Below, piece after piece: positions 11,900-61,118 of a DNA stretch of 64,000 nucleotides. The stretch comes from Lingula anatina (Eukaryota; Animalia; Brachiopoda), in NCBI GenBank assembly GCA_051362555.1, contig CM120640.1, forward strand, positions 63,280,788 to 63,344,787, in the 5' to 3' direction. Positions within the stretch are counted from its first letter, which is position 1. The number at the start of each line of letters is the position of its first letter. Both the position numbers and the translations under genes were made by a program. The notes under the pieces were generated by a model that was not told the origin of the DNA, searched no databases, and saw only the letters and a list, made by a program, of their open reading frames with translations.

Positions 11900-14800
11900 T
11901 TAATCTTCTTCACCATCATCGTCGTTCATTGCTATCTCGTCTTTGAGCAGATCGATAACCATTTCGCGTTCTTTGTGAGACAGCTGGTTCTGAAAAAATA
12001 TATATACATTTTAGTCAAAAGCTCTAGTGACGATTCCAAGAATGACATCGGGTGTTACCAATGGTACAAACAACTCTGAATCCGTTTTATTTATTTATTT
12101 ATTTATCTAACCACCTTTTAAAGAATGAAAAAAAAAACAAATATAATAAATAAGTTAGATTGAGATGGAATAAAACGAAATACATAAAAATAACACAGTG
12201 TAAATAGAGGCCAATGAAAAAGATTTTAAAAATAGTCCCACAAGCATGTACTCCTTAGATTGTCTTTCCTGTTAACTGGAACTATTAACTAGAAAGCCCA
12301 ACGTGTATACAAGTCCTGATGGTCCTGTGACCCTTTGCTAGCAGATTTCATGTTTATCATACTGTACATAAAATTGGGCTTATACCAAAAGATATCATTC
12401 AAGCAGGGTCCCTCTCATCAATAAATGATTGAGTGTAAAATGAGATAGCACGGTCAGTCAATGGTCATGGTCTTATAGAATAGAGATTTGCCTGATTTAA
12501 AAGCAGCAGCATTAGTTTTTGGAATTTCTTTTAAAAGCTCTGATGCACGAAATCTGGAGGAAACACCCATAAATCTAGTAACAAATTTGTTTGCAGTGTG
12601 TCTAATAAAGGGAACCGGAGAAGATCAGCATTGGTCAGAATTGTGCCGGAAGTGACGTGCAGTGGTGTTAGAAACGAAGCTGAGTGGTCATTTTAACATA
12701 GAGGTGAACGGCAGTGAAGACGGGTTGTCGGAGGAAAAAGAAGTTTTCTAAACAACATGGTAAGATAACACTTTTTCTTTACGCATTTTGGGCAGAGAAA
12801 ACTTGTAGAAATAATAAATGCATGATATGAAAACGTGACACGGAACTTGAAGGTGCAAAATCGTGCTTAATTGGCGGTCAACTTGTTTTAAAATGAATGC
12901 TGCATCGACCGCCATTGCGACAAAGAGTGTAAATGGAAAATAATTCCCGGGAGGCTGTAAATCGTTGCCATGTGGAAATTTGGCATTAATATAATCCGAT
13001 ATGTCCATATCTAAGTATTTTTGGGGTGTTTTATGGTATGGGCTGCAATTAGAACGAAGTTTTAGAGGTCTTGAAGGACCTTGTGAAAACAAGGAAGTAG
13101 TTCGTAACTAACAAGTGAAATGTACCGATCTCCGACTGCTGTGCACAGCTGTATCTTTTTTTCAATATATTGACGAATTTTTGTCACAGGACAAATAAAA
13201 CATTTCACTGACAAGATCTTCCCAAAAAGACAAAAAGAGAATTCAGGTGAGCTGACAGGTAATTAAGACTAGCTCAAAGTACTAATAATTGACATTATTA
13301 TGCAATACTCAGTTGGTAAAACGATTCTCACAGGTAGATAAGATGTAACATGACCAATTTCTATAGGCTAATGATTGCCAGCCTGAGGAAATTGATTGCC
13401 AGTCTCTTTTGTCAGTGATTTTTAACTCAGATAAGAGGCTGTCAGAATGTCACCTTTGTCTTGGCATTTGTCACTGATTAGCGCCTTTCCCAGTGTAAAA
13501 GGTATATCAGTGTGATCATGTGTGTGGAATTTCATGCCAGATGGACATATAAAGATCTAAAAATTCGTCAATATATTGAAAAAAAAAGATACAGCTGTGC
13601 ACAGCAGTCGGAGATCGGTACATTCCACTTGTTAGTTACGGACTACTTCCTGGTTTTCACAAGGTCCTTCAAGACCTCTAAAACATCGTTGTAATTGCAG
13701 CCCATACCATAAAACACCCAAAAATACTTAGATATGGACATATCGGATTATATTAATGCCAAATTTCCACATGACAACGATTTATAGACTCCCGGGAATT
13801 ATTTCCCCTTTACGCTTTTTGTCGCGCTGGCGGTCGACGCAGCATTTATTTCTAAGTTCCGTGTCACGTTTTCATATCATGCATTTATTATTTCTACAAG
13901 TTTTCTCTGCCCAAAATGCGTAAAGAAAAAGTGTTATCTTACCATGTTGTTTAGAAAACTTCTTTTTCCTCCGACAACCCGTCTTCACTGCCGTTCACCT
14001 CTATGTTAAAATGACCACTCAGCTTCGTTTCTAACACCACTGCACGTCACTTCCGGCACAATTCTGACCAATGCTGATCTTCTCCGGTTCCCTTTATTCT
14101 TTTAGGTGTTTCTGAGACGTGCAAACCGAATGAACTTCGTAAGTGATATTGGCCGGCGATACTATTGTTCGCCACATAAAAGGTATGGTCTGATATCTAA
14201 GCCATAAGACATACGGAATGTTTTTGTTACGCCTGGAGGTTGGGTAGTCATCCGCTGTATTATTTCAATTGAATGTAACGCGATGCTTTCGAGTTACGGG
14301 CCCAGGTTTAATAACGTTGGCAGAGTGGCCGCTGTTTGCCGTGACATGGACTTTTTTCTATATCTTTGGTTTCACATTTGTTGACGAATCTATCATCCAG
14401 ACTAAATATGTCAGGGATTATAGTATTCTTGGACTGGCGATTGACTGGCTTACGACTTATGAATTGCGGGGATAAATTCTGGGTATATCGCATAATGCAA
14501 AATTATGAAAGTCTCCATTGGTATAAAGAACAACACGTCCGTGGTTTTATCACACGGGTTCCGATAGATTTTGTGTAAAGAAGTCAGATAGACATCAGCA
14601 AATTTACTACTATCCACCCAATAAAGGTCGGTCAATAACTTTATTTTCTCTACCACAGTGGCCGTGGCCTCAGGGAATCGAATTATTTCACAGCCACAGC
14701 ACAATATCAGATCTCCCTGACATAAAAACACATCTTTACCACTTCTTTTATTTTTGCAAAGATGTTCTATATACAAGTCGAAGAAAACCACTGTGACGCT

Positions 14801-15453
14801 GAAGGCTTACTTTCGAATAATTATTGGAAGACACTTTTGTCTTCACAAAAATCGCACAGTTCTGCAATTATTTGTCGGGTATTTTGAAAAAATAACCTAT
14901 TGCCCAGAAGCATGATTGCCGAGTTCACACTAATTTCGGTTGTCAAAAGAGTAGGCCTACATGTATATCCGTAAGCATATAGTGCCCTTTATCAATCTTC
15001 GTCATCTCACTCGGTTTGTCACCGAATTTTCATTAAAAAAGAAGAATATGCGTGTGGTAAGGATGGAAGTAAGTGATAAAAGGTTTTCATAAAAGATTAA
15101 ATGAATTATCGTACCCTGTCAGTGTTATCAGCGTCAGCGACTCTCTTGTTCTGAACCAGTCTGCGTCTACGCGAAGCTAGAAATAAGAACAAATAAAACA
15201 ATAAGCTTAGATCAAAGTGATTTAATACACCGCATCTGCACAGCTTTGATAAACGGAAAACTAACTTAAACTAATTGTTACGAGCACATGATGAGAGAGA
15301 TAGTAAAATAATCAGAAAAATAGCCGAGGCGGATCACTACACTGTGCCAGGAAAAGAGCGAGCAACCGTAAGTAACTTACCGTCAGAATCAGCAAACATC
15401 TGCATCAGTATCATAACCAAAAGCAAAGCCGCAAACATCTTAACCTTTGCCAT
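11900..15453 (-). CDS. Arg-rich secreted prepropeptide, copy 1 (3 exons, intact)
   Basis: Exons 15381-15453, 15115-15176, 11900-11989 with phases 1 and 0. Translation: MAKVKMFAALLLVMILMQMFADSDA-SRRRRLVQN-KR-VADADNTDR-NQLSHKEREMVIDLLKDEIAMNDDDGEED*. TATAAAG at 15541-15547 on the minus strand. Confidence 0.85.
12604..14098. mobile_element. Foldback DNA element with ~550-580-bp inverted arms in intron 2 of peptide gene copy 1
   Basis: AATAAAGGGAACCGGAGAAG... (12604 to ~13182) is the reverse complement of ~13559-14098; the right arm lacks ~40 bp; spacer ~375 bp with no transposase. Confidence 0.9.
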
Positions 15454-17151
15454 GTTGAAGATCACGAGTATCTCTGGATATCGTAGCTTGCCGCGTCTGT
15501 TGTAGAATCGGAATACACTTGTTCCTGCCCAAATACGCCGCTTTATATTGGCCAAGCAGTGAAGTCAATGGTTTACGCATGTGCAGAAAGGGTTTTGGGT
15601 GTTAGGCTTCACGTTTATTCCCATCCTATCTACCCGCCCCTGATGCTATGAAAAATGAATACTCCTTTTCCTCTTGGCGAAACGATCGCAATGTCGCAAA
15701 ATGCATTAAACACGCAGAAAGGTCAATTGGAGTCACATTTTTGTTTTGGCCCTTTTAAGATTCCGTAGACCAATTTCTTTCCTTTTTCACAACACTGGGA
15801 CTTATTTCTCTTTTAGAGAATAATAGAGTTAAAGGATATGTTTAATGGCTGAAATACAGTAGGATTATGAAAAGGTGCTTTCACATGCTTTTCTGTGAGA
15901 TGTTATTTGAAATTTTCGTTTTGATGACACATGAAAGATACTTGCTGACTAATGACTAATTTTCACACATCTTTTACACTTGGGGTTTACTTTGGTTCAC
16001 GGAATAAGGGACATAAGAATTAAATTTTACCAAATGGTTAGAATTTCGATTACTTTTTTAAGCCATAGAAGAGCTGATTGCATGAAGGCATAGGACACTA
16101 TAGTATATTCGACATAAACGCCATCGCACGGAACAGCTGAGTTAAGCAGAGGCACTTCTTCCTCAGCTTGGGCCATATAATATTTGTGTAATAATAATCA
16201 AACTGACGAAATGAAGACAAAATAAATGCAGTTGTTTTTGTTTCTGCTATGTACACAAAAACGCCATACATATAATTGTTTCCTTGATTTTACGGCTTTT
16301 AGCCCCTGCATTTTAATCTTATTTTACATCGATCTGGATTACTTTCAAATCTGAGCAACTGATCATGAGAGTTTTAAAAAATATATGAGAAAGGTGCTTT
16401 GAGGAAAATGGTCTCATGCTGTATAATAACATACATGTACACAAACTAGAAATGGCGTTATACCCTTTATTCGGTTTAAGGGTTGCTTTTCGGTGGAATA
16501 CGAGTAGTCTCTTTCGGTATGCATGGGCATTTATCGCTCGAGTGACAGTGTATTATGTCACACTCAACATACATGAAAATCACTTGGGTTGTTAGGGAGA
16601 AAATATCTTTGACGCCAATATCTCATTTATGTACTTATAGAACGATATAAAACAAATAAAAATAATGGCGGATCAGATGATTGCTCACGCAATAACTATT
16701 TATTAGTTACAGAATTTATGCTCTATGACACCTACAGTAATTCGACATAGACCACGAAAGCCATCGTGGATTGTTAGCAGTCTCTCTTGAGGGATATTAT
16801 TGTTGGTTTTGTCTTCTCAACTAATCACTGCTTTCAGCTCTATTTTAGTTCATTTTGATCTATTTTTGTTTTCCTTCTTCAAAACAATCTTCTAGTATGG
16901 AATTGTCCATGAATTCAACTTTACATGTGAATCATGTTAAATTCTATAAGTAGATTCTACATTCTATGAGAATAAATGCATCTTTAATGAATTTATATTC
17001 TTGCGTGAAGAAAAATACAAGCCAGACAGTCGAAGTTATCTGACAGACCTTTTTTAAGTTAGAAAAGTCAATCTAAAGAATTAAATCGTGTTTGAGTACA
17101 CGTGATGACCTCCGGGTGTCGAAAACTGCCTGCGTGGGTGTCTGATGGCCC

Positions 17152-20100
17152 TTATTCATCTTCTTGGTATCCGTCCGGTTTGTCACCGGGATCGTTCATG
17201 TCGTCCTTGAGCAGATCAATGATCATGTCACGCTCGTGGTCGGACAGCTGGTTCTGAAAACGAAAACAATAAGTATTATTGTAGCTAAAAATTCTTTCAG
17301 TGATTTCAAAATGGTCCCGATTTTTATCGAAAGTTACTCTGATTTTAAGACCTCTGAATCATAGCAAGATACCTCCATGTTTTATCCTCAAAATAAAATC
17401 TTTGAAGGATTTACTGCAAGTTAGAAAATTACGAAATATCTAGTAGGCCTACTGGTACATGTCCCTTCAAAAATTTTGATATTTGAATTTGACTACATTT
17501 ACACATTTAAAATTGTAGCTTAATTGTGCATTTCCATCTGCAGTGTATATGATTAAAAGGATGAATAAGACGATTGTTCACAAAGGACCTATTTATTGCT
17601 GTGAACTCTGATGATGCGTCATTTAAGTCAAAATTGATCACGAAACACATCCCAATTCTCAAAAGTCTTTCGAGATATTACTGGCATACAGCTTTGTCTT
17701 TCAAACAAATCGCATACTTCTGCAATTATTTGTCTGATTTTCAATAAATTCAATCTACCGAGGAGAATCGTGGTTGATGAGTTATCACTGTAGTGAGGTG
17801 TCTTTACTAAACGTCTACATATCCGTCACTGATATAATTCATAAATATTTCTTCTTTATTCAAATCGATCATGTTGCGTTCTTTTTACAGACTTGACATT
17901 TAATACGAAATATTTCAGTTTCGAATGTATGCCTAAGTAAAAAAATGCGTTCTTTTTTCAAAAAACTCCAATCTCATGTAAGATATGTGAATGGAGAAGT
18001 GTGTAGTCAGGTGTGTCGCTTCCAATTAACTGAATACCAGGTTTGTTGCGCTGCTGCATTATGTAATATGCAGTGATTTAATTGGGTAGTGCTCCTTTGT
18101 GCAGGTCAAAGCTTGTCTTTGGCAAAGCATGGTTCTGTCAAAAAAGTACCCATATGTCGACAACTACTGCATAGATGAATTTGAAATTTTGCATGCAGGT
18201 GGTCGGTTTTGCAGGTGGTAAAATGAGCTATGCAGTGCTTTACAAATTTGTTAATCTGTGCAGAATGGCGCGAAAAAGGCAGACATTGCCAGACAGATAA
18301 TCGCGCCAAACGAAACGGACCCCACAGTTTTATAGAGTAATGCCCAGACTGATGTACCTACACAGATGCCACACCCAATGTATTGAAATCTTACCACCAG
18401 AGTACAGGGCCCACTGTTTTTCGGGATATGCTGCCACCAAAACGCATTTTTCAAGGCCCTTAGCGAACACCAAACTGGTTTTACCAGGTTAGAATACCAG
18501 ACGACCTACGAAGAACCCGCTGTAAACAGCAAAACATCGTTGTATGTTTCTCTAATGAACTGGGGACCTTGACCGTTTTTGGGTTGAACACTGAAACCTC
18601 GTGGCTTTCTTTATTAATGTCAGATTTCACCTGTAATGCCCAACTAGTCAAAACAGAGTTTACAGACATCCAGAAGAGGCCAACGACGAAGCGTGTGCCG
18701 CGTCTAAAGTGACTTAGGTCATTAACAGCGTCAGTATTTGGAGTGGATAACACATTGGTGCCAAAACGCCAATGGTAGTCATCGACGAAAACCTGAACCA
18801 GATCAAATAAAGGAATAATCTGGGAACCACTTGACTATCATTTGATAGGGGGCACCTTAGGAACAATTTTAGGTTGCGCAGTGAGATTGCCCGTTCACAC
18901 GGAGCACTTTTAATAGCAGATTACTTGGAGAACCAAGGGAATAAGCAGCTACCTTGGTCATCAAAATCGCCATATTTAAACCACATAGACAATATGTGGG
19001 TAGGCCATTACTCGCCAAATCAATGGCCTACATGTCCTGCAACAAATCTGGACCAAATTGGACAGCTTTTGATCGATGCCTGAAATGTTATTCCAGATTG
19101 AACTCTAAAAACCAATCCCAAGGAAAGCCTTGCCACTTGAGAGCGCTTGTAGCAGCCAGAAGAGGTCAGGCGTAACAGCAACCGTTACTGTGACTAGACA
19201 CTGACATGAGGGTCCTTTGTGGAGCGTGTAACTCTTTTACAGACAATAATTTGGAAAATATGGAGATCCAAAATATCTCTTTTAATGGTTGTCGTATGAC
19301 ATAGAATAGGCAATGTGTTTTTGTTTGCTTCTCTGGCGAATTACATTAATTAACTGATATCAAAATGACATCAAAGAGATAATTCAAAGTTATTAAAACA
19401 CGATTTTAATCCTTGTTTTCATTTATCAGTCAGCAGAATAGGAAAAAACTGATGAAATATGATTTGGAAAATATATTCCATATTAAATGTCAAGTCTGTA
19501 GATACTGTGCGCTGATAGAGAAGTAAAAATTAACTCATTGCCAGCAAAAAAAAAAGCACCATGGTCGTCTGTAATCAAATTGATCATATCATGTGGCGCT
19601 CTTTGTCAGACAGCTGATAATGAAGTAAAAGACTCAAAAACGCAGGTTAACCCGATTGGCCAATCACTTTCATAAATGTTTTATAAAAAACATATGAAAC
19701 TGAGCACCGTCATTGGAAGATGGCACTGACAATGAAAGAAAATGTATTTGATAAAGAGGAAGTAGTGTTAGAATACGTTGATACTAGTAGATTAACATAC
19801 CGTGTCAATGTTTGCAGCGTCAACGTCCACAGCGTCCTCAATTTTCTTTCCATTACGCCTGCGCCTTCTACGTCTACGCCAAGCTAGAAGTAAGAATAAA
19901 TTAATAAAGGTTTTAATATTTTGAATATTCAGAATTCGCACAACATAAACAAATGCATTTAACCCAAATTGATTTGTAGGAAAGCTGATTTTTCTTCATT
20001 TGTTTTAAGAGAGAGAGAGGGAGAGAGAGTAAAATTATCAGAAAAATAAAAACACTGTGCCAGGAAAAGAGTGAGCAACTGTAAGTAACATACCGTCAGA

Positions 20101-20166
20101 ATCAGCAAACATCTGCACCAGTATCATAACCACAAGCAAAGCCGCAAACATCTTAACCTTTGCCAT
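17152..20166 (-). CDS. Trp/poly-Arg secreted prepropeptide, copy 2 (3 exons, intact, amidation signal)
   Basis: Exons 20094-20166, 19801-19883, 17152-17253. Translation: MAKVKMFAALLVVMILVQMFADSDA-WRRRRRRRRN-GKK-IEDAVDVDAANIDT-NQLSDHERDMIIDLLKDDMNDPGDKPDGYQEDE*. TATAAAT at ~20254-20260 on the minus strand. Confidence 0.88.
17888..19498 (+). mobile_element. Decayed Tc1/mariner transposon
   Basis: TIRs CAGACTTGACATTTAATA / TATTAAATGTCAAGTCTG are flanked by TA on both sides. The remnant ORF 18874-19083 contains LPWSSKSPYLNHIDNMW, a degenerate Tc1 WPxxSPDLNPIENxW motif. Confidence 0.88.
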
Positions 20167-20694
20167 GTTGAAGATCACGAGTATCTCTGGATATCGTAGC
20201 TTGCCGCGTCTGTTGTAGAATCGGAATACACTTGTTCCTGCCCAAATACACCAATTTATATTGGTTAAAAACAATGGAGTCAGTCACACTTAATGCTTCT
20301 CTATTACGCTCGCAGACCATGAGATAAATATTTCAATGTTTTCAGGATCACTCAGCTGATCAGGAATGATGCACGACACGAAAATGAGAGTGCATTTCTT
20401 AAATGTCCGTGTTATGACATAAAATAATTATATCATTGTGCCATCGTAATCAGGTAGTTAGCGCTTATTTAATTATGTCCCCATAAATGATTAGTCCCAC
20501 TATATACCGTAATGCAGGGAATTTATGATTGCGTCTTATGAAATTAAATACACAATTCAATGTTAATGCTAAATACATGGAAGAAGAGTTTTGTATTGTG
20601 CAAGTGCATACCTCATTATGTGAAACTAAGTACGACTCAACCCTCACGATCCTTGCAAAAATGCGGATTAATTGAGATTCCACGTAGAGAGAGA

Positions 20695-20728
<34 letters not shown>

Positions 20729-20995
20729 TTGAAGGGGGGGGGGGAACAGCTATCAATGTTCAACCTTTGCAGAACGTGTACATATTCTTATCTGAAATTC
20801 GCATAGTAAGTAAGAAGTAAGTTTGCGAATCTAAGGAAAATGCAAAACGTTGTAGGTTATCTTGCATAATCGTTAAGGTTTTACATTTCTGTGATAAATG
20901 AAATTAAAGAGTTGGAAAAGTCAATCTACAGGACAAAATCATGGTTGTCGAGTACACGTGATGACTTCAGGGCGTCGAAAACTCTGCGTGAGCCT

Positions 20996-21298
20996 TTACC
21001 CATCTTCTTCACCATCGTCATCGTTCATTTCTATTTCATCATTGAGCAGATAGATGATCATTTCGCGTTCTTTGTGAGACAGCTGGTTCTGAGGAAAAAC
21101 ATTTTAGTCAAAAGCTCCAGTGACGATTCCAAGAATGACATCGGGTTTTGCCAATGGTAACAATGATTTTAAGACTCTGAATCCGTTTTATCTTCGAACC
21201 ATACATTTTGGACGATTCACTAAAAACTTGAATGACATGATATCACCACAAGTATTCATGAAAACAATGCCTTAACAACAGGTTAAGTAGCCTGGCCT

Positions 21299-21359
<61 letters not shown>

Positions 21360-22216
21360 GGGGGTGTAGGAAACAGTAACAGAGAGGTGATGAAAGAGGG
21401 TACAAAGGGGAGAAAATGTCAAAATCTAAATATTTTTATCAAAACCAAGATTTTCCTTAAATGACTAATCGACAGTCGAAGTGTTCCATCTCTTTTACAA
21501 AAACAAATTTTCATCGGCAACATATCGAAACCCTCTTATTGTTATTTCATTTAATTCATCATATCTGGCTATACGAATCAAATACAAACTATTTTCGTTT
21601 TCAGGTAGAACCTTCTTCATTCTTACTTTCCTGCGCCTGCGAATAAATTCTATGGGTTTGTTTTCTACGTGTGTTATTTCATTCTTTTTAAAATGGAAAA
21701 GAAAATATATTGAAGGGTTAGTAATCAGTGATAAACAATAACATTGACGGCCTATAACAACAGTTATTTGACATACATATATTGAATAATGTCCTCGGGT
21801 ACTTTCCCTTACCAACATATTCAACAGCAATATTGCTGAAGCGTATAGCGAAAAATTGAAATAATTCTACACATGAACAAGTCCAATACTCGAAGGATGA
21901 TGAGACCTTTTGGCACTGTTTCAGCTTTTTTGTGTAATATTATTATTATTATTATTATTTTCGCACAGATGCTATTGAACCATAGATATTATCATGTCAT
22001 GATTTTACTTTACATCTACCACATATTACATCATCACATACGAAACCGGTCTCGTATAATACACAATAGCATTCAATAACATTATTGCTGGATCGTATAG
22101 CGAAAAATTGAAATAATGATACGCATGAGCAAGACGTGGGTGGGCATTCTTAGTGCTAGCTTTCAGGTGCAATTATCGCCGAAACAAGCCTTTTGGCACT
22201 GATCCCGCATATTTGT

Positions 22217-22260
<44 letters not shown>

Positions 22261-22409
22261 GACTCACAGATGTTGATTTTTGAGATTTTGGTCTCAAGAT
22301 TGAATCCAACAGTATAAAGACGCACAATGTCAAACCATTTGTTTTGTCAGCATGCACTCAGGGTCAGCAGTGCAAAGAATGCAAGGACATTGAAAGTTTG
22401 TCATGGCAT
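20996..22409 (-). pseudogene. Peptide family copy 3, probably pseudogenised
   Basis: Clear exon 3 at 20996-21088 (NQLSHKEREMIIYLLNDEIEMNDDDGEEDG*). An Arg-rich exon-2-like segment at ~21590-21650 (EFIRRRRKVRMKK) has uncertain splice sites. A signal-like stretch MP*QTFNVLAFFALLTLSAC* from 22409 contains stops. TATAAATA near 22485. Confidence 0.55.
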
Positions 22410-23114
22410 GGAATCATCTTTCTCCCAGTCCGCTGCGTTCGTCCTCTCCCCCCTCCCCCTCTGCGACTCCTACCTCTGAGATATTTATACAGTTTAATCC
22501 CAGTTCCATTATAAGATTATAAATTACACAACATGAGTTGTTCTAAGATTATGCCGTCTATTTAGGATCCTAGATTATAAGTATTTGTTATAGTATTTGT
22601 TAAAGAATTGAAAGTCGGCTAATTTCAAAGAGGAAGGGCCATAGACCATAACAGTGCACAACGAAGCAATATACGTTTATTGAATTTATATTATGTCTTT
22701 AACAACACCCAGTTTGAAAAATGAATAAGAAGGTCAGTTAAATGTCTTCGATAAAAATGTCTGCCAGGTACTTTCCTTTACCGATAAGCTTTCCACTCAA
22801 TTTCTGACACTTTTATCTTCTCATCACCAATATTTTGTATACATATTGTAGGTTCCTAACCTTGTTTTATCTTTCTATAATTGTCCAAAAAAAATGAATA
22901 AATATTTGTAGGCATATATACTTCACTCCCACAGTAAAAAAAATTGGAACGAACTTAGACAATTTGTAAACATTATTAACCATCGTATCTCAGAAATTGA
23001 TCCCTTTTCTGATACAGAGACGTAAATCCAACTTTATATCGAAAAAGTTGAATTCTAAAAAGCGCTATAAAAATGTACATATGAATCTCAATAAAAAAAT
23101 CCTGTCATTTCACT

Positions 23115-23569
23115 TCATTCATCTTCGTCATCTATCTCGTCATCATTCATGAATATTTCATCTTTAAGCAGATCCATGAGCATATTTCGCTCTTTTTCAG
23201 ACAGCTGGTTCTGCAAAATAATAATGGTGATAACTTAAGTTAGTATAATGAATGAATGAATAAAAATTCACGTTGTATATGCAGTTCTCTTAAAATGACA
23301 ACAACTGGTCGTTTTAGCTAAAAACAGTTTTTCCCGGGGTAAACGACGATTTCCCCATACTTACCAAAGGATAGTGAATTCATTCCAACATTTAAAATAA
23401 GTGCATTTAAGTGATTTTTGGTATAAGTGCATTTAAGTGATTTTTGGTATTAACTCTTAAGATTGTAATAAAAAACTCTTTGTCACAGACTGGGGCTTGA
23501 TAACAATATTTGACCTACGTATTAGATATTTCTTGGTTCCAAGATTTTCTATTTAGTGACTTTCTATGG

Positions 23570-23626
<57 letters not shown>

Positions 23627-23841
23627 CTACGTTTCGCTTGTCACAAGAACATCATCAGGCTGAATGTTGACATGTCGTTGGGTACGTGCTGGTCGACCTG
23701 TGAATGATTCTCACATTAACTGAATAATATTTCATCTCTTTTGAAACAATATTTAGCATACCGTGTTTGCTGCGTCGTCTTCACTGTCCAAATTCTTTGA
23801 TAAACTTGCTCCTCTCCTTCTGCGCCTCCGCCTCCACCAAG
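23115..23841 (-). pseudogene. Peptide family copy 4: exons 2-3 intact, signal exon missing
   Basis: Exon 2 at 23762-23841 reads (A)WWRRRRRRRGASLSKNLDSEDDAANT; exon 3 at 23115-23210 reads NQLSEKERNMLMDLLKDEIFMNDDEIDDEDE*. The position of exon 1 in paralog copy 5 is occupied by a 4.2-kb TIR element. Confidence 0.75.
23626..23663 (-). ncRNA. Degenerate minimal type-I hammerhead-like motif (Penelope-type)
   Basis: Minus strand tcagc-CTGATGA-tgttc ttgtgac aagc-GAAACGTA-gc. The core is intact but stems I and II are weakened. Confidence 0.5.
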
Positions 23842-23902
23842 CTGCATTTAAAAAAAATGAAAATAATTGTTACATTGAATTTTCAAACTAAACGTCAATG
23901 GA

Positions 23903-26735
23903 AGTCTCTGTAAGGTTCAGAATAGGGTGGCACATGACCCTCTCAGATTTTGATGAAAATTGGTGTATTTGTTCATTATAGCCCCAAACCAACACAATGG
24001 ATATTGGTTTGTTTGAATCACCCTCGGTTACCATGGTAACAGCACTTAAAATTTTTCACCCAAGATGGCGGAATCCAGATTGCAAAATTTCAATTTCAGC
24101 TATATTTGAGCTAAAAAAACCATCAATGTGGATAAATAAACATTTTTCATTTTCAGACATTGTTACATATCATATCCTATTTGAACTAAAAACATATAAA
24201 TAAATGTTTTTGGTGGCCTTTAAAAATTAGAAAAATAACTTTGAAAATGGGGAATTTTCAAAAATTCCAATTTTTGCTAAAATGCCCAAATTTGCAAATT
24301 TCAAATACATTTTTCATAGACTGGCCAAAGCCATCTATTATCACCATACATTACATAAGAAAGTACATGTACTGTCCTTTTATAATCAAAAATAAAATTT
24401 TTTTCAAACACATTTTTCAAAAAATTATTCAATTTTTAAAATTCTTAATCCAAGATGGCGGCAACCAAATTGCACATTTTACATATTTGTGTATATTAAA
24501 AATAACAAACATGGTTAAACACATATTTTATATTTGTATGTTGCTAAATCCCAAATCTTGATTAATTGAAAAACATAAAAAATATTATTTTTTGCTGGCC
24601 TTTAAAAATTAAAAAAATAACTTTGAAAATGGGGAATTTTCAAAAATTCAAAATTTTGCTAAAATGCCCAAATTTGCCATTTTCAAATACACTTTTAATA
24701 GACTGGCCAAAGCCACCTATTATTGACATACATTACATAAGGAAGTACATATACTGAACTGTTTTAATCAAAAATAAATTTTTTTTCAAACACATTTTTC
24801 AAAAAATTATTCAAATTTTAAATTCTTAATCCAAGATGGCAGCAATCAAATGGCAAAATGTCCCTATTTCTGCTTTAAACTAAACAAGCATGGATAAAAC
24901 ACACATTTCATTTTAGTATCCTGCTAAATATTATATCTTGATTTAGTCAAATGCATATTACTTAATATTTTAAACAGTCCTAAAAATTTAGAAAAACAAC
25001 TCTAAAAATGGCAGATTTCCAAAATTTCAAATTTTAGCTAAAATGCCCATATTTTGCCATTTTTAAATACATTTTTCATAGACTGGCCAAACCCACCTAA
25101 TATTGTCATACATTATAAGTAAATGTTTTGAGTTAATATTATAAAAAAATCTTTTTTCAAACATTAAAAAAAAATGCATATTTTTAAATTCACAATTCAA
25201 GATGGCGTCAACCAAATTTTCCATTTTTCGCTATTTCTGCTTTAAAAATGGATTAAAATACAAATTTTGTACTTGTGTCCTGCTAAATAACTTGATTTAG
25301 TCAAAAGCACACAGGTAAATATTTTTGTGATCTTTAAAAAAAACTTTAAAATGATGAATTTTCACAATGGGACAATGGGTGTTAATCTTTCAAGGTCATA
25401 CAATAACAGCAATGTGGTGGTATTCTTTTGGTTGACATCCAATAGTTGAGAAATATCTCCTACCAGTCTCAGCTTCAGTTTCAATCTCTTGTGGACCTTC
25501 TACCACTGTCCAGGAAAAAATTCCCTTATTCATAAACTACTATCTATAATGTGCGTGGATTTAGCAGTGCCCACCCCAGATTAGTTAACATTTTTATTTG
25601 ATTCTTTTAATCGTATATGAATATATTTTAAACAAGTCACAGTGAATTAAAACATGTTTTTAGTCTTTCTTATTTGAAAGAAAATGAGGCATCTTCTCTA
25701 CATAGTAGTAAATTATATGAATATTTATTATGGTGTTCAGCATTTTTGTCACAAACTTAAAATACCAATATATATTTTCCCTCATGCTCCTTGCCCTAAG
25801 GTGTTCATAATTTATTAATTTTGCTAATTTTCTTTTGGTATACAATTTATTTGTAAGAATATTTGTTGTAGGTAAAGTCCATTGGTAACCAGCTACACTG
25901 TTAGAAGTTGTGATATCAAAGCAAAGCAAAGCAGTTATCAATGTTAAGGGTGCCTCAACATGATAGTATTTGATGCATTTTGTCCTGAGAATCATGCATG
26001 ATCATACATTTTGACTAGTCCAACATCTGCCTCAACACTGAGGACTAATTTGGCATGTTACAATCAGGTAGAAAGTATCATTATGATAATTTCCCCTATT
26101 TAAGTTACTATTTACAATTTTAATGTAAAGAGTAAAGTTAGGTCACCTGCTAGTTTTCAGTAAAGAAATATGAGAAAAATTTATGGATAACACAGACTTT
26201 ATGATATCAAAACTGTGGGAGCATTATGCTAAGCAGGACTTGATTAGGTGAGTCTTTAATACAAATAGCATGATTATCAAGGCTTATAAAGTAATGCTAA
26301 CTTGTTTTAGTATTTTTTGTGACTGAAAATCTAATGTACTGCTATATCTTTCCGAGAAAAACTGAGCTGCAAGACTGGTTTGTCAAATAAAGTGCAATAG
26401 TACACACCATATCACTCCCATTCTGAAAGGATAAACTTGGCTGCTTGTATTTGTATTATTTTTAAGGCGATACATACACAAGGACCATTATATTTATCTG
26501 ATCCTATCTGTTTTAACTGACCAAGGCGGTCCACACATTTTAATACTGAGAATGACCTTATTTTAGAACACTATTTTAGAGAAGGGGTGCCTCAAAAGTT
26601 ATGGAGATCGGGCTTTTATAATCTATGCCTCCAAATTATGGAACGCCTTACCAAATTTTATTTGAAAAGCAGTTGACTTTGACAGTTTTAAATCCCTTCT
26701 TAAACTCACATTTTTAAATCTGTCTATATCTCTTT

Positions 26736-31798: not shown

Positions 31799-32693
31799 TC
31801 ATTCATCTTCGTCTTTTATCTCGTCATCATTCATGAATATCTCATCTTTAAGCAGATCCATGAGCATATTTCGCTCTTTTTCAGACAGCTGGTTCTGCAA
31901 AATAATAATTGTGATAACTAAATTTAGTATAAATGAATGAATGAATAAAAACTATTCACGTTGTCGGTGTTGTTCCCTTAAAGGATAACTGTTCATTTTG
32001 ACAAAAAAACAGTTTTTCCTGTGGTAAACGACGACTTTTTTCATACTTACCAAAGGTTAGTGAATCCATCCCGACATTCAAAATTAGTCCATTTTTTCTA
32101 ATACGTTTGATTTTAGGTAATAATCTCTTAAGACTGTAACAATAATCTCTTTGTCACCGACTGGGGTTTGATAACAATATTTGACCTACGTATTAGATTT
32201 TCCATGGTTCCAAGATTTTCTATTTAGTGACTTCCTGCGGAACAATATATAAATCAGCTACTTTTCGCTCGTCACAAGAGCATCATCAGGCTGAATGTTG
32301 ACAGGTTGTTGGGTTCGTGTTCGTCGACCTGTGAACAATTTTCACACTAACTGATTAATATTTCATCTCTTTTGAAGCAATATTCAGCATACCGTGTTAG
32401 CCGCGTCGTCTTCACTGTCCAAATTCTTTGATAGGTCTACTCCTCCTCTGCGCCTCCGCCTCCGCCAAGCTGTCAATTACAAAATACAAAGAAAAATGAA
32501 AATAATTGACATACTGAATTTCATTTAATGCCAATGGAAGTCTTTATCATATTACAGCAAATCAGACACAAACCGTTAAGACTGGACGCGACAAAGAAAA
32601 AGCAAAAAGCTTCAACATACCTTCAGAATCAACAAACATGTGCACCAGCAATATTGTCATTAGGAGCAGAGCAAATCTTTGACATCCACGCAT
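31799..32693 (-). CDS. Trp/poly-Arg secreted prepropeptide, copy 5 (3 exons, intact)
   Basis: Exons 32621-32693, 32393-32469, 31799-31894. Translation: MRGCQRFALLLMTILLVHMFVDSEA-WRRRRRRGGVDLSKNLDSEDDAANT-NQLSEKERNMLMDLLKDEIFMNDDEIKDEDE*. TATAAAAA at ~32771-32778 on the minus strand. Confidence 0.88.
32254..32294 (-). ncRNA. Degenerate minimal type-I hammerhead-like motif in intron 2 of copy 5
   Basis: Minus strand TCAGC-CTGATGA-t-GCTC ttgtgac GAGC-GAAAAGTA-GCTGA. Stem I (TCAGC/GCTGA) and stem II (GCTC/GAGC) pair perfectly; C>A change in helix III. Confidence 0.55.
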
Positions 32694-35708: not shown

Positions 35709-36344
35709 TTAGAATCCGACCTCTGGTGTGAGAAGCGGCGTGGTAGTTGGAGGGCTGCGAGGGCTGGATGAGGGAGGCAGCTGGACAGTGGTCCCGGTGA
35801 CACAGTCCCATGGTGTGTCCACCAGCATCATAGAACCATGCATACAGTAGGTGGTGGTACACCACTCCTTACGGACCACACTTCCAGTTGGATACCACTG
35901 GCCTGCAACCATGCAACCAACATCATGATGGTGTGTTGTAGTTGAGGTGGGTAAGGGAGCAGTGGTCAGGCATCCCCATTCTGCTGGCACACTCCCAAGG
36001 CCGTGGTATGAGCAATAAAAACAGGTTCCATCCTGCATTATGTAGCTCTCAACATTTATTGTCTTGTCGCCGACCCTACACTGGCGCGGGTTGCGTTGGG
36101 TTGTGGTACTGGGATGAGGGCGACTAGTGGAAACAGGCCTGGGGAAGCACTCGGGTTTTGCCACAGACCGCACGTAGCCGTTAGCGCAGTAAACCATGAA
36201 ACATTTCTCGCTGGCGATCAGACCCTCGTGAAAAACTTTGCCTTTGTAAGTACACGTGTCACTTAGCTTTAACGGTAACCCGCAGGCGTACATGACAAAC
36301 ACAGAACCAGCAAACGCCAGGAAAAAATATCCGTGTCCTAACAT
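35709..36344 (-). CDS. Secreted protein (~211 aa) with three 4-Cys VWC-like modules separated by Thr/Pro-rich linkers, single coding exon
   Basis: Signal-like MLGHGYFFLAFAGSVFVMYACG; modules CTYKGKVFHEG..C..C..C, CRVGDKT..C..C..C and CMVAGQWYPTG..C..C..C; linkers PVSTSRPHPSTTT, TTAPLPTSTTTHHH and PPSSSPRSPPTTTP. The ORF is open upstream to 36443. Confidence 0.8.
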   Translation of the reverse strand: MLGHGYFFLAFAGSVFVMYACGLPLKLSDTCTYKGKVFHEGLIASEKCFMVYCANGYVRSVAKPECFPRPVSTSRPHPSTTTQRNPRQCRVGDKTINVESYIMQDGTCFYCSYHGLGSVPAEWGCLTTAPLPTSTTTHHHDVGCMVAGQWYPTGSVVRKEWCTTTYCMHGSMMLVDTPWDCVTGTTVQLPPSSSPRSPPTTTPLLTPEVGF

Positions 36345-37105
36345 GTCTGATTTGTCGGTAATCAATAGAATATGGAGATTTACATGTAGGTGCAACAAGA
36401 TAAAGATGAGGTCTTCGTGATGGAAGCCATACCATATGGGCATTTCTCATATACCAGTAAAGATAAGAAGTTTCTCAATACTATGAAGATAAGAAGTCCA
36501 AATGACGAGTCATGACAAATAGCCACTGTACTATTTATTTTATAAATAAAATGAAACGATAAACAAAAAATTCAATATACATCCAAATTATTGCACAAAT
36601 ATATTTCGAAGAAACGGATTTAGTCTGTAACTTTCGTATAGAAATGAACAGGTTCCTTTCTTGAACAAAAGAGATTGTTCCTAATCTGACAAATCTAAAA
36701 ATAAAGAGCTTAACAAGTTTACTCAGAATGCAACCTCATTAAAAATATTTTCAGTCCGTTCCCCTACTAGTGCATCGCTGAATGAAAAGCATTGTCTGCA
36801 CCTGCACCACGCATAGAGAACTGATATAGTAACTGATGAATTTTATGCAGAACTGATGAAGACCACAGTTTGTCAAAGCATTACTTCCCCTTAGCAAAAT
36901 ATCAGGCCTGCTGCAAACTCTCTAGCAAATTTACTGCAAATTTGCAAGAAATTCTTGCACCAAGTTGCTGCGAATTTGCTGCTAATTTACTGCAAATTTG
37001 TAAGAACACTTTTATGCAAATTTTTATGCAAAATTTTTATGCAAATTTGCTGCATATCAGCTACAATACAAAATTTTCTTGGAAAGTGGTTGCCACAAAC
37101 TTTTA

Positions 37106-47886: not shown

Positions 47887-50800
47887 AAATAAAAAGATTG
47901 CTCACCTATGTAATCATTGAGTGTGCTCTTAGGGAAAGGTGCATTAGACACCAGAGGAAGCTGACATTCAAAAGCTGAGAACATGAACTTTTGCACTTTA
48001 CTGTGACCAGGAGTATACATTGGAGAATTGCCAGAGAGACTGTCCTAATGAAGCAAATAAAACTAATTAATCTGAATACAAACTATGCATGTTCTATACT
48101 TGGTTTGTCCAACAAGACTGTCCAGTCAACTAAATCAGAATATCAAATTAATGCACAGAGTTTTTATATTCTTTGTAATTAAAGGATATCCACACCCAAT
48201 TAGACAGTATGAAGAAAGTAAAACTTAATTTTAACTCTCATCTGATCATTCGGGATTCTACGAGATATGCGTGCGCCTGGTACTCAATTCTGCGTTTGCT
48301 TGTCCTCGTGCTCACACGTGCACTCGATTATTCATCGATTTTTTATAATTTACGTGTTTTTTTAAAGACTGGTCATACTCTTTTGTGAGAGATTGCTTGA
48401 CAGACAATCTTTTGTACTAATTGACGCTGGTTTTTTAGCATGTCGTCGGCTCAGACCGGACTGCAAAGCGACTTAGTTGGCGCTATTATTGCTCAGGCTG
48501 ATGGCATGTTTGTTATCGGGAAAAGCTTACAAGAAAAGGGTATTTCAGGCAAAACTCAAGACATTATTATGCAATCTTGGCGGACTGGCACACGAAAACA
48601 GTACAACACCTACATCAAAAAATGGATTAATTACTGCACTAAACTCAATTATGATCCCTTTCAGCCAAGTGTGCCACAAATATTAGGATTTCTCACTGAA
48701 CTGTTTGAAGCTGGTCTTAATTACAGTGCCATTTGCACTGCAAGATCTGCTTTATCAGCTTTTGTGCAACTGAAAGATTCCTCAACACTTGGATCTAACC
48801 AGCTCATCAAGCGTTTCATCAAAGGTGTATTTCACAGCAGACCTTCTTTTCCCAGATACCAAACCACATGGGATACAAATATTGTATTAGCATACCTAGA
48901 GAAATTATTACCAGTTTCAGAACTTTCAGACAAAGATCTAACACTCAAACTAGTTATGCTGGTGGCACTGATATCAGGACAAAGATGTCAATCAATTCAT
49001 CTCATGAACCTTAAAACAGTGTTAAAAACTGACACAGGAGTGGCTTTTTTAATTGACGCATTAGTTAAACAGTCTAGACCAACAAAAGATCAGCCAATCA
49101 TAAACTTACCTGGTTTCCCAGAGAACAGCAGACTCTGTGTGTTGAATGTGTTACATGAATATTTAATTAGAACTAGCAAATATAGAAGTAGTGGTGTTTC
49201 ACAACTTTTTCTTAGTTACAACAGACCTTTTAATCCTGTAAAAAGGATACGGTTGCTAGATGGATAAAGACAGTCATGTTAAAGGCTGGAGTGAATACAA
49301 GTGTGTTTAAAGCACATAGCACACGTGCAGCTTCTACTAGTAAAGCTTTTGCTGCCAATATTCCACTCAGTACCATTTTGCGTACAGCTGGTTGGAGTAA
49401 CAACAATACCTTTTCTAGGTTTTATAACAAACCAACAGTATCACAGAATACTAGTTTTGCTTTTTCAGTGCTTGAAAAACTGTGATTATGATTCATGAGA
49501 ATATTGTTTGAGTTGCATTTAAAAAAAAAAAAAACTTGTTTCAACAGTTCTTTGTTCGTGTTCACGACAGCTTTGAAATCTCGTAGAATCCCGAATGATC
49601 AGATGAGAGTTAAATTTAAAGATTAAACGAGACTTACCTGTAAGTTGAAGTTTGATTGGAATTTAACTCTCATCTGGATCATTTGAGGGATTATACGCCC
49701 ACCCTTATTTTCAGTTAACACCCACCCTTCTTCCTTTGTTGCCGTGAACACTCAACTTTAAAGATTGAGTACCACGCAGGCGCACGCATATCTTGTATAA
49801 TCCCTCAAATGATCCAGATGAGAGTTAAATTCCAATCAAACTTCAACTTACAGGTAAGTCTCGTTTAATCTTTAAATTATATAACAAGGAATTAAAAATA
49901 CAATTTATCACATTGAACTCAACCTATGATAAATTTTCTTTAGACAAATGGCTAGATTATTTCTGCTAGTTTCAAATTTTGAATGAGAGGAATGAAGAAA
50001 AATTTGTTTGGCCATAAAAATCTTACTTGTACTCAAGAGCAACTCAATATTTTGCAAATGTATAATTTCAATGACAGGCTTATCATGTTGTGAAAATGAA
50101 TAAGTAATTGGAATAGAAAATAACTGAAAACAAAAATAGATGAATGGGCAAGATATGGTAGTGTCATTTTTATATTAACCAATCAAAAAGCAATGCTCAC
50201 TTCACTGTCAACAGCCATCAAATCCCAGACCAAGACACGCCCATCACTCATGATGAGGCTTATGTTCCGCTCTGTCACTGGGCTGCACACCATGCCGTAC
50301 ACTCTAGCATGCTTGGTTAGACGCATGGGATCTGATTGGCAGCGTAGATCATAAATCATGTCTGGCTGGCTCACACCAATACTGTTTTCTTCTGAAGTTT
50401 ACAAAGAATTAATGTGTAGTGTACAAAATTAGGCATTTATTTACTTTTATGGTCAAATAATTAGTATTCAGCTTTTACACTGAAATCCAAGGTATTTGAG
50501 GATGTGAACTGCAAGTTAAGACTATAAGACTATGGGGACTTTTCTTGCTCTCTAAAAAGGATAATTTACAAAATTAATGAAAATTAAAAGATCTAATGTT
50601 TCATTTATTGGGCTTGATTATTAAGTTTGGGGTTGGTGCTAGTAAATGAAGAACACAATCCACTGTGTGCTATACTGACATTAGTGTATTCTACATATAC
50701 AAAATAAATAATGCTATGCTACATGTAACAACTTTGCACTTAAGATCAAAATACTTGTACAGTAGACCCAAGTACCTTATTTGACATTAAAAACGAACAG

Positions 50801-59392: not shown

Positions 59393-61045
59393 TCACAATT
59401 CAGGTTCCCGATTCAAAGGTTTGGCTTCTATAATAGCTCTGATTTCGTTAGCGGAGGAAAATGTAAAATCCTGGGCACTAAGGCACTGGGACTTATAGCG
59501 ATTTTTCGCTAAGCACACGACGTAATCAATTAGATCTAGCTCCTCCGCCATATCTTCCTGTTGCTGTGGCACTTTTGCGATCATTTCTTTGTGTTCCGTA
59601 TCTGGGTTCATCATTCGTCCTCTAGCACTGTCCAGTATCTTTTTTGCCACAGCTGCAAGTTCTCCTTGTGTTTTGGGATACGGTGAGTTGGCAAGCCACG
59701 AACCCGGTTTTCCTTCCATCACATAATAACTTATTAAGTCAAGGTTTAGGTAGTGGGCCATTGCTGCTATACTAGACTCTCCGTGTAAAAACAAGTCACA
59801 TTTTGCTAACGTTAGCACATCTCTAAGAACAGCCCTGCCATTCGCTCGGGCAAACTGCGGGCTTTCGTAAGGATTGTGCACAGCATCTGAATAAAAATTT
59901 GTCTCTCGAACGGCTTTGTTCCAATGAACTTTATTTCCAAATTCTTCTTTAAACCTTTTGACAGCCTCCTCATTGTCTGATGCCACAAATATCCGGATAG
60001 ACTTGGAATTATTTTCTTTGTATTTAATTTTATTGCGTAATTCTTGTGGGAGAACGTTGTCAGGATTCACCACTACTTTTATGACTTTTTTGGTCTCGGC
60101 TATCCATTGATCTAATGAAATGAGTTTTCCTACCTCATCCCAATGATCAGTTGCTCTAACATGTACTCCAATATTGAAATATCCCCTCATTGCTTTGTTG
60201 TACGCCGCCTCAACAGATTGTTTAACTACAAATGCCGGCCTGAAGTACTCTTTTAGCACATAATGAGCCAGCAGTCTAGTGTTATGCGTTATCTCTCCAT
60301 CGAAACTAACTTCTGGCATAGACCCTTCTCTAGTTTTTTTCTTAAAACTTAGATTCGCCAAATTATCTATTCCATATGATTTTACTACAGGCTCATGAGA
60401 CACTATGCAGATTTTATGTTCTGGCTTATTCTTGTCCCCATCTTCTAGAGGCTCGAAGAACCAATTAAAATGATTCACCTGTTGTTTGGATTCGCTTCCA
60501 CAGAAATTGCAGTGGTACCATTTCACTATGGGTTCACCTCCCAATAAAAGACATGATGTCAGTAGTTCTACGGCGTAAAGCACTGCGGATATCATTGCAG
60601 GACCATCATGGCCACAGTAAGATAATGTGTCCTCTATGTAACATGTCACAGAATTTGAGCGCAGAGAAAGGTCTCTATCGTACGATATCACAGGCCCAAC
60701 ATCCCGTCTGAAGTTTTCGAGTTTACTGAGTTCTATTTTTGTTTGCTTTGCAATCCATTCTAGAATGCTACGCCTTGAATGAAGAGTGGCATTTTTCAAC
60801 TGAAATTCTGAAATGGATTTTCCGTCAATAAACCCTATATCCTTTAGTTTTTCGTTTAAAAACTTTGCATTCAGCGCCTCTCCATTTAGCGACGATAACT
60901 GATTTACAGTGTCTATTTTATCGTTCCTTTTGATTTTAGTCGGTATCATACATACCATATAAAGTAAAAGCAAAAGACTAACAACAGCACTTAAATACAT
61001 CATGCAAAGGAATTTCCGTAGACAACTGCGTAGACACTGCGTCAT
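59393..61045 (-). CDS. Intronless type-II membrane GT-B fucosyltransferase-like protein (NodZ/FUT8/POFUT superfamily), ~550 aa
   Basis: N-terminal TM (YLSAVVSLLLLLYMVCMI); motif I IGVHVRATD, motif II IFVASDN, motif III DVLTLAKCDLFLHGESS. First ATG at 61045 (the track start at 61150 is TTG). Confidence 0.8.
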   Translation of the reverse strand: MTQCLRSCLRKFLCMMYLSAVVSLLLLLYMVCMIPTKIKRNDKIDTVNQLSSLNGEALNAKFLNEKLKDIGFIDGKSISEFQLKNATLHSRRSILEWIAKQTKIELSKLENFRRDVGPVISYDRDLSLRSNSVTCYIEDTLSYCGHDGPAMISAVLYAVELLTSCLLLGGEPIVKWYHCNFCGSESKQQVNHFNWFFEPLEDGDKNKPEHKICIVSHEPVVKSYGIDNLANLSFKKKTREGSMPEVSFDGEITHNTRLLAHYVLKEYFRPAFVVKQSVEAAYNKAMRGYFNIGVHVRATDHWDEVGKLISLDQWIAETKKVIKVVVNPDNVLPQELRNKIKYKENNSKSIRIFVASDNEEAVKRFKEEFGNKVHWNKAVRETNFYSDAVHNPYESPQFARANGRAVLRDVLTLAKCDLFLHGESSIAAMAHYLNLDLISYYVMEGKPGSWLANSPYPKTQGELAAVAKKILDSARGRMMNPDTEHKEMIAKVPQQQEDMAEELDLIDYVVCLAKNRYKSQCLSAQDFTFSSANEIRAIIEAKPLNREPEL

Positions 61046-61102
61046 ATCTGTGAAGTTGAGTGCTCTCTCCTCACTGGGATATTTTGCAAACTCCTCCCTC
61101 TG

Positions 61103-61118
61103 TATATATCTGACGTCA
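61103..61118 (-). promoter_or_regulatory. Perfect CRE (TGACGTCA) adjacent to a TATATA box upstream of the fucosyltransferase
   Basis: TGACGTCA at 61111-61118 and TATATA at 61103-61108, ~60 nt before the ATG at 61045. Confidence 0.4.

Follow-up and report, generated by a model that had tools for sequence, protein, structure and literature searches.

The octa-arginine exon of Lingula anatina gene LOC106152583 and the tandem family of putative secreted precursors around it

We ask here what is encoded by a short piece of minus-strand DNA in a 64,000-nucleotide stretch of the genome of the brachiopod Lingula anatina (GenBank assembly GCA_051362555.1, contig CM120640.1, positions 63,280,788 to 63,344,787), in which a codon for tryptophan is followed by eight successive codons for arginine. 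This whole stretch is called the window below, and all coordinates are counted from its first letter. A first-pass annotation, made from the letters alone, had read the piece as an exon encoding A|W-R8-N-G-K-K followed by acidic sequence, and had predicted from it a natural amidated decapeptide, W-R8-N-NH2. Two questions then arise, namely, whether the piece belongs to a real gene and what becomes of the arginine run in the gene product. The first can be answered plainly: the piece is the middle coding exon of a real, annotated and uncharacterised Lingula anatina gene, LOC106152583, which we call gene B. The second receives an answer of graded strength, as discussed below.

The identification of the gene is based on the following searches. 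A profile made of the five intact exon-3 copies of the family in the window was searched against 1.84 billion representative proteins and gave a single match, P0002 (E 5.4e-10), which is XP_013381668.1, "uncharacterized protein LOC106152583 [Lingula anatina]". This protein matches the window at 100%, with its residues 8-55 lying at 20238-20095, residues 56-83 in exon 2 and residues 84-116 at 17253-17155. When residues 32-116 were compared with 5.8 billion proteins, only P0002 itself matched. Relatives outside the locus were not found in the protein databases searched, in which gene B was the sole match, and the paralogs A, C and D described below are missing from them. Pfam gave four matches to P0002, all below the cut-offs, and the ESM Atlas gave no usable feature match, the hits being generic helical look-alikes only, of a model with a predicted local distance difference test (pLDDT) score of 0.49.

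The gene structure agrees with this identification. The exon with the arginine run (19883-19801, minus strand) is bounded by an AG acceptor at 19885-19884 and a GT donor at 19800-19799, with phase 1 at its beginning and phase 0 at its end, and gene B consists of three exons with canonical splice sites, the frame being unbroken from exon to exon. Exon 1, from the ATG at 20166 to its phase-1 end at 20094, gives the first base of the Ala codon; exon 2 gives the rest of that codon, W-R8-N-G-K-K and 14 further residues with five acidic ones among them; exon 3 sits 2.5 kb further downstream. The reading of W-R8-N-G-K-K followed by acidic sequence is thus borne out by the splice sites, the frame and the signal-peptide exon. 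By contrast, the precursor size of ~60 aa and the ending of the acidic sequence near exon 2, which were also proposed at first, have to be corrected: the precursor counted from the MAKV start has 85 aa, and both the public model and the paralogs show that the acidic tail runs on into the distal exon 3. A product of ~60 aa could be made from gene B only via a degenerate exon-3 remnant at 19613-19584.

Two other endings of the coding sequence were considered and rejected. In one of them exon 2 is read through its donor, giving T-V-C-stop in three paralogs, which seemed to be a conserved C-terminus; however, the GTATG that follows exon 2 in all the copies is a splice donor, because reads of paralog C are spliced there, and the public protein continues into exon 3. 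In the other, exon 3 of gene B is placed at 19725, but the sequence there does not resemble the paralogs, and in the public model this exon begins at 17253. On the plus strand over exon 2 only short open reading frames are present, without support, and no Rfam family was matched in 11000-33500.

Now, we consider the arginine run itself. In the 64-kb window there are three runs of at least six Arg (8, 7 and 6 residues long), every one in the family of gene B. In 100 simulations of the window by a first-order Markov model no such run occurred, the maximum being five. The Arg8 run is thus far beyond chance. Its codons are mixed, exactly as first given (Table 1), and from this it had been argued that the run is not a simple microsatellite and that it reflects selection at the protein level. 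It is indeed no young triplet expansion, because the codons are mixed, and Tandem Repeats Finder at a minimum score of 30 detects no repeat in it; but a hexamer periodicity is present, with bases 1-6 identical to bases 7-12 (6/6) and bases 13-18 agreeing with bases 19-24 at 5/6. Moreover, the first 12 nt of the run match the run of paralog A at 11 of the 12 positions, and over its last 12 nt it agrees with the runs of paralogs C and D at 10 positions. As the imperfect hexamer pairs are shared with the paralog runs, the differences in run length (4, 6, 7 and 8 Arg) have probably arisen from the gain and loss of 6-12-nt units. The proposed selection at the protein level fits, since the four paralogs keep an Arg run with differing codons.

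These four paralogs are arranged head to tail on the minus strand, in the 11.9-32.7 kb region of the window, and have a common plan, in which a signal peptide precedes a (W/S)-Arg4-8 core and this precedes an acidic tail. In the part that follows the signal peptide, the charge of the core in A, B, C and D is +4, +8, +7 and +6, respectively, and that of the rest is -8, -12, -13 and -12. The parts of the plan have diverged to very different degrees. From the putative promoter block at about -100 through exon 1, genes A and B are 96-100% identical, whereas blastn finds no match between exon 2 of A and exon 2 of B. Between C and D, the differences at the core are mainly indels and replacements, whereas the 14 tail codons of exon 2 show three silent and zero replacement changes (counted by eye) and exon 3 is 96-98% identical; among the five intact exon-3 copies, 13 of the 31 aligned positions are invariant. 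A conserved promoter, signal and tail versus a variable core resembles the pattern typical of defence-peptide families.

It is paralog C for which transcription can be seen. About 6-25% of each of four RNA runs (X12, X13, X15 and X18, all with the same species label and with the tissue unspecified) was mapped on 14900-24400. Paralog C is transcribed and spliced: its intron 23761-23211 (GT..AG) is joined by 11 reads of X18 and 2 reads of X15, with none in X12 and X13. No exon 1 of paralog C was found in the window, and 16 X18 reads run from the start of its exon 2 into a D-like signal-peptide exon. In exon 2 the paralog C reads show silent differences at two positions, 23771 and 23791, and their signal-peptide exon differs from that of D at 2 of 30 bases.

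Based on the anatomy of these precursors, we tentatively propose, with somewhat less than even confidence, that they form a lineage-restricted family of secreted prepropeptides, in which the polyarginine core would be neutralised by the tail up to its processing, after which the cationic fragment would act on microbial surfaces. We favour this proposal because of the tripartite plan, the charge compensation, the tandem clustering, the near-identical promoters and signal exons beside diverged cores, and the concentration of the C-D changes in the core, with the tail remaining constrained. The pathway for gene B would be as follows. The first 23-25 residues, with a hydrophobic core in exon 1 that reaches a Kyte-Doolittle 11-residue maximum of 3.35, would act as the signal peptide. 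In every paralog two signal-peptidase sites obey the (-3,-1) rule, one after [AV]-D-S and the other after S-[DE]-A; in gene B these are after residue 23 (ADS) and residue 25 (SDA), so that the removal of the signal peptide would leave D-A-W or W at the N-terminus. In paralog D, Val at -1 excludes a cut straight after the hydrophobic core. During the transit the polyarginine core (+8) would stay neutralised by the acidic tail (net -12). W-R8-N-amide would then result from a convertase-type cut at K-K, trimming by carboxypeptidase and amidation, or competing cuts within the Arg run would lead to a ladder of shorter W-Rn peptides instead. The cationic fragment would act on microbial membranes or polyanions, as Arg/Trp-rich peptides do.

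A stricter alternative is the one predicted at first, that a single defined decapeptide, W-R8-N-NH2 (monoisotopic 1565.958 Da), is produced by a cut after S-D-A, a cut after K-K, the removal of both Lys and the conversion of Asn-Gly to Asn-amide by peptidylglycine alpha-amidating monooxygenase (PAM), with the Arg run surviving. The parts of this prediction that stand are the signal peptide, with S-D-A obeying the (-3,-1) rule, and the motif, of which no part is lacking in the sequence: neuropeptide screens look for amidation sites by G[KR][KR] as the standard pattern (PMC8557429, here and below cited from a portion of its text), and the Gly-dependent amidation logic has also been applied to myticalins (PMC5577615; PMC12294457). 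Survival of the run is conceivable too, as free L-polyarginines bind furin and PACE4 as inhibitors, which could make the turnover of the run slow (PMC11394684, likewise cited throughout from a portion of its text); the Ki of octa-L-arginine is 61 nM for furin, 0.15 uM for PACE4 and 5.1 uM for PC1. Synthetic peptides of Trp plus Arg also inhibit furin at 0.1-1 uM, with a Ki of 0.10 uM for W4-[R5] (PMC4482483).

What does not stand so well is the notion of one clean product. As judged from its sequence, the Arg run is itself the strongest predicted convertase motif in the gene B protein. In a review, strings of basic residues are treated as a furin site, and furin can cleave nona-L-arginine (PMC11394684). 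A long Arg run is expected to bind the convertases tightly and to slow the turnover, and a W-Rn mixture would therefore be just as probable as one clean decapeptide. In addition, the second legal signal-peptidase site would give D-A-W instead of W; AlphaFold2 on the full P0002 (mean pLDDT 64, predicted template modelling score (pTM) 0.27, pLDDT 56-65 over core and tail) shows no contact of the core with the tail at good confidence and thus lends no support to the suggested shielding of the run by the tail; A, C and D have no amidation motif; and no RNA reads fall on gene B in any of the four runs. As the G-K-K is unique to gene B, amidation is no feature of the family. With these points on the two sides, we regard the single decapeptide as improbable.

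A more far-reaching idea, which we consider very unlikely, is that Lingula makes a genome-encoded, secreted octa-arginine peptide that corresponds in nature to the synthetic R8/R9 cell-penetrating peptides and to the nanomolar furin/PACE4 inhibitors; it would be delivered as a self-neutralised proprotein, with the acidic tail as a built-in antidote and with the run inhibiting the convertases rather than being turned over by them.

The consensus of furin sites is R-x-[KR]-R, and with such a site in the run the roles of core and tail could also be reversed. The Arg run would then be a mere multibasic convertase site, the core would be trimmed away, and the product would be an acidic, partly helical C-terminal peptide of ~50 residues. 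It is consistent with this that the tail exon, with its 13 invariant positions, is the best conserved part of the family and has a confidently predicted helix (residues 5-22 in AlphaFold2 on the five aligned exon-3 peptides, with pLDDT 91 and 86 over the first two ten-residue blocks), and that between signal peptide and tail C and D have no other basic cluster than the Arg run. However, a cleavage site placed 1-2 residues past the signal-peptidase site would remove nothing, so that its retention would lack an obvious reason, and four Arg would be enough for it, yet runs of 6-8 Arg together with the adjoining Trp are kept in three paralogs. A conserved propeptide beside a variable core is, moreover, also usual in defence-peptide families (PMC5577615). 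We thus give this explanation a low probability. It is noted that an amphipathic character of the tail helix, which was also considered, is rejected, the hydrophobic moment being low (0.17-0.25).

Next, we discuss whether gene B itself is active, since it might be a silent or decaying paralog, with an open frame that is a recent leftover and a public model without a working transcript. Gene B has zero depth in all the four runs while paralog C is transcribed. Its intron 2 contains two exon-3 remnants, both degenerate, as well as a transposon-like insertion of 1.6 kb. The first exon of the public model is odd: the model starts 31 residues upstream of MAKV, with the first eight codons at 21021-21000, inside the orphan exon-3 copy but in another frame, and is then spliced to 20237. 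This 31-residue N-terminal extension is doubtful, because 20237 lies 23 nt downstream of a CCAAT/TATAAA motif, where a TATA-driven start is expected; the start in the orphan exon 3 is a hint of chimeric or read-through transcripts, or else of an artefact in the annotation. Pseudogenes and members without expression are common among the analogous myticalins (PMC12294457). On the other side, the three exons of gene B are open, its splice sites are canonical and its distal exon 3 is intact, its block from promoter to exon 1 is 96-100% identical to that of paralog A, and the RNA sample consists of four runs, of unspecified tissue and 6-25% each. We consider a silent gene B unlikely on balance, and note that it would be compatible with the proposal of a secreted prepropeptide family at the level of the family.

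Some further observations concern the surroundings of these exons. Degenerate exon-3 remnants are present in intron 2 of A as well as of B, and the transposon-like insertion at 17886-19500 interrupts the second remnant of gene B. RNA reads at 17753-19654, of 95-99% identity, break off exactly at 17886 and 19500; as they stop at the ends of the inverted repeats, they come from other, transcribed copies of the element. Within the insertion, 48 X18 reads show a joint 18852>18681, which goes back 172. The orphan exon-3 copy with its flanks (20999-21088) is 86-95% identical to the copy at 11903-11989. In the putative intron 2 of gene A there is a perfect 245-nt inverted repeat at 12604-14098, with arms that are 100% complementary and separated by 1005 nt and with three arm pairs nested in it, which may be a foldback element or an assembly artefact.

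Alternatively, the proprotein could be secreted uncut, as a small zwitterionic protein that binds polyanions or cations such as those of mucus, glycosaminoglycans or the calcium phosphate shell. The family is without a common dibasic site, strong opposite charges are present in one chain in all four proteins, and Lingula mineralises calcium phosphate (PMC4595640, cited from a portion of its text). But according to that portion of the Lingula genome paper the shell matrix proteins were found to include no secreted acidic ones, a 2026 paper on comparative shell proteomics does not contain XP_013381668.1 in its one supplementary file (1.3 million characters), and an exposed polyarginine would be unlikely to pass the secretory pathway uncut. 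We therefore give the uncut protein hardly any weight, and a shell-matrix role, which was tried as a candidate, is rejected as being without support from these two sources.

We now return to the secreted prepropeptide family with a neutralised cationic core, against which several points have to be weighed. Firstly, the cutting out of the core is not provided for in a common way: G-K-K is present only in gene B, A has K-R without Gly, and C and D pass from the run to Gly-Gly or Gly-Ala with no dibasic site, so that a common mechanism of this kind misfits the family as a whole. Even in gene B, Lys-Lys is a poor dibasic site, reportedly the least used. R-R-R-R is an optimal furin-type site, with nona-L-arginine being cleavable by furin while still a potent inhibitor (PMC11394684). 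Secondly, the core of 9-10 residues is far below the known linear defence peptides, e.g., the myticalins of 17-47 aa (PMC12294457). Thirdly, gene B has zero depth over 19655-20288 and 17119-17435 in the four RNA runs at the sampling of ~6-25% of each, save for 0.23 in one X12 bin. Fourthly, were the upstream start of the public model real, the signal sequence would be internal. Finally, no paper in the literature searched names the accession XP_013381668.1 or the locus LOC106152583.

Provided that the peptide is made, no natural secreted peptide of essentially pure oligo-arginine would have preceded it, a chemistry that so far comes from synthetic peptides, and the family would be the first linear defence-peptide family for brachiopods. 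In the literature searched on brachiopods no linear defence peptide was found, and among the papers listed that mention Lingula anatina together with antimicrobial peptides no title or abstract describes such a family. The family may also show how a secretory cell handles a sequence in which the roles of cargo, cleavage site and protease inhibitor are combined. If gene B is silent, the finding would be an uncharacterised small gene family of modest interest. The cluster is an orphan tandem cluster of which the public annotation has one member only, and not the one that is visibly transcribed (C). The coordinates are collected in Table 1.

Table 1. Positions in the window of gene B, of its paralogs and of associated elements.
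Feature	Position	Strand	Remarks
CCAAT/TATAAA motif	20255..20264	-	23 nt upstream of first base of annotated exon 1; putative promoter
Gene B	exon 1 coding part 20166-20094; exon 2 19883-19801; exon 3 17253-17155	-	core W-R8
Gene B exon 1	20094..20237	-	71 nt 5' leader, start codon 20166 and 24 signal-peptide codons; phase 1 end
Gene B intron 1	19884..20093	-	210 nt, GT..AG; junction as in database protein P0002
Gene B exon 2	19801..19883	-	A|W-R8-N-G-K-K and first 14 acidic-tail residues; 100% = P0002 residues 56-83
Eight Arg codons	19855..19878	-	CGT AGA CGT AGA AGG CGC AGG CGT
Asn-Gly-Lys-Lys	19843..19854	-	predicted amidation and dibasic processing motif, after the general PC/carboxypeptidase/PAM pathway
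Gene B intron 2	17254..19800	-	2547 nt, from public model; donor homologous to RNA-confirmed donor of paralog C
Degenerate exon-3 remnant in gene B intron 2	19584..19613	-	first two codons (Asn-Gln) lost, CAG the only possible acceptor; 1-bp deletion giving a stop after 9 codons; possible alternative acceptor
Transposon-like insertion in gene B intron 2	17886..19500		1.6 kb; 28-nt terminal inverted repeats (93% complementary), TA at both flanks
Gene B exon 3	17152..17253	-	33 acidic-tail codons and stop; 100% = P0002 residues 84-116
Orphan intact exon-3 copy	20999..21088	-	between genes C and B; first coding exon of public model (21021-21000) inside, in other frame
Paralog A	11900..15453	-	exon 1 15453-15381; exon 2 15176-15115; likely exon 3 11989-11903 (assigned by gene order); core S-R4; K-R site without Gly
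Paralog C	23115..23841	-	exon 2 23841-23762; exon 3 23210-23118; core W-W-R7; no dibasic site
Paralog D	31799..32693	-	exon 1 32693-32621; exon 2 32469-32393; exon 3 31894-31802; core W-R6; no dibasic site

Elsewhere in the window three open frames were observed. The one at 59393-61219 on the minus strand is intronless, has 608 codons and shows a NodZ-like (alpha-1,6-fucosyltransferase type) Pfam match of 29.8 bits versus a cut-off of 28.3. The one at 48425-49267 on the plus strand has 280 codons and a below-cut-off match to the phage-integrase N-terminal SAM-like domain, and may be a remnant of a tyrosine-recombinase retroelement or of a Crypton. The one at 35709-36446 on the minus strand has 245 codons, with Thr/Pro-rich stretches and spaced Cys and Trp, and gives no Pfam match.

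Finally, we compare gene B and its family with known systems. The precursors of amidated neuropeptides and hormones, which are processed by convertase, carboxypeptidase E and PAM, resemble gene B in having a signal peptide and a short peptide followed by Gly and two basic residues. They differ in that the amidation motif of gene B is not kept in its paralogs, that the peptide itself is made of the residues of a cleavage site, and that gene B holds a single peptide copy. In the main text of the brachiopod neuropeptide survey, neither 'RRRR' nor 'antimicrobial' occurs (0 occurrences in PMC8557429).

With the synthetic R8/R9 cell-penetrating peptides and furin/PACE4 inhibitors (PMC11394684, PMC4482483) the predicted core shares eight consecutive L-Arg next to Trp. 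Unlike these laboratory peptides, the run of gene B is encoded in the genome behind a signal peptide and is tied to an acidic tail. In the poly-Arg antimicrobial peptides of the tilapia piscidin 4 type, clustered Arg, as is also present in gene B, raises the potency (PMC12371492, cited from a portion of its text). The natural poly-Arg motifs described there have typically 3-5 Arg on a helical segment, by contrast to 6-8 Arg making up nearly the whole predicted peptide in Lingula, and the run of eight in gene B is unusual in this respect.

The last comparison is with the myticalins and modiocalins of Mytilida. No sequence similarity to them was found in the protein database searches (not a direct alignment), and in the MyticalinDB supplement no peptide sequence matches three motifs; the signal peptide of paralog D loosely resembles the published myticalin consensus, by eye only. 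The introns differ. In the Lingula family signal and core are separated by a phase-1 intron, core and tail by one of phase 0, whereas the myticalin genes have a 5' untranslated region exon, a single exon for signal, mature peptide and dibasic site, and a phase-1 intron within the anionic extension (PMC5577615). The core also differs in length, with 9-10 residues in Lingula (12 with the alternative signal cut) versus 17-47 in myticalins. A Lys-Arg/Arg-Arg site between core and extension is conserved in myticalins, while Lingula has K-K in B, K-R in A and none in C and D besides the Arg run. The host differs too, being a brachiopod here, and for the myticalins gill expression and antibacterial activity are described. 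With no similarity found, other intron positions and phases, a shorter core and a brachiopod host, membership in the myticalin/modiocalin family is rejected. Yet the likeness of the precursors extends to many features. As in the family of gene B, a signal peptide is followed by an Arg-rich cationic core and by a C-terminal extension that is anionic (~35-90 aa) (PMC5577615, PMC12294457); the genes lie in tandem multigene clusters, where signal and tail are conserved and the core is hypervariable; and pseudogenes and unexpressed members are shared features. Moreover, the mature peptide of myticalin C begins with stretches of consecutive Arg (PMC5577615), as would that of gene B, and myticalins A and B have a predicted amidation signal of Gly plus basic residue. 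By analogy, therefore, the myticalin/modiocalin family appears as the closest known system, of which the Lingula family is not a member but with which it shares the same precursor logic.

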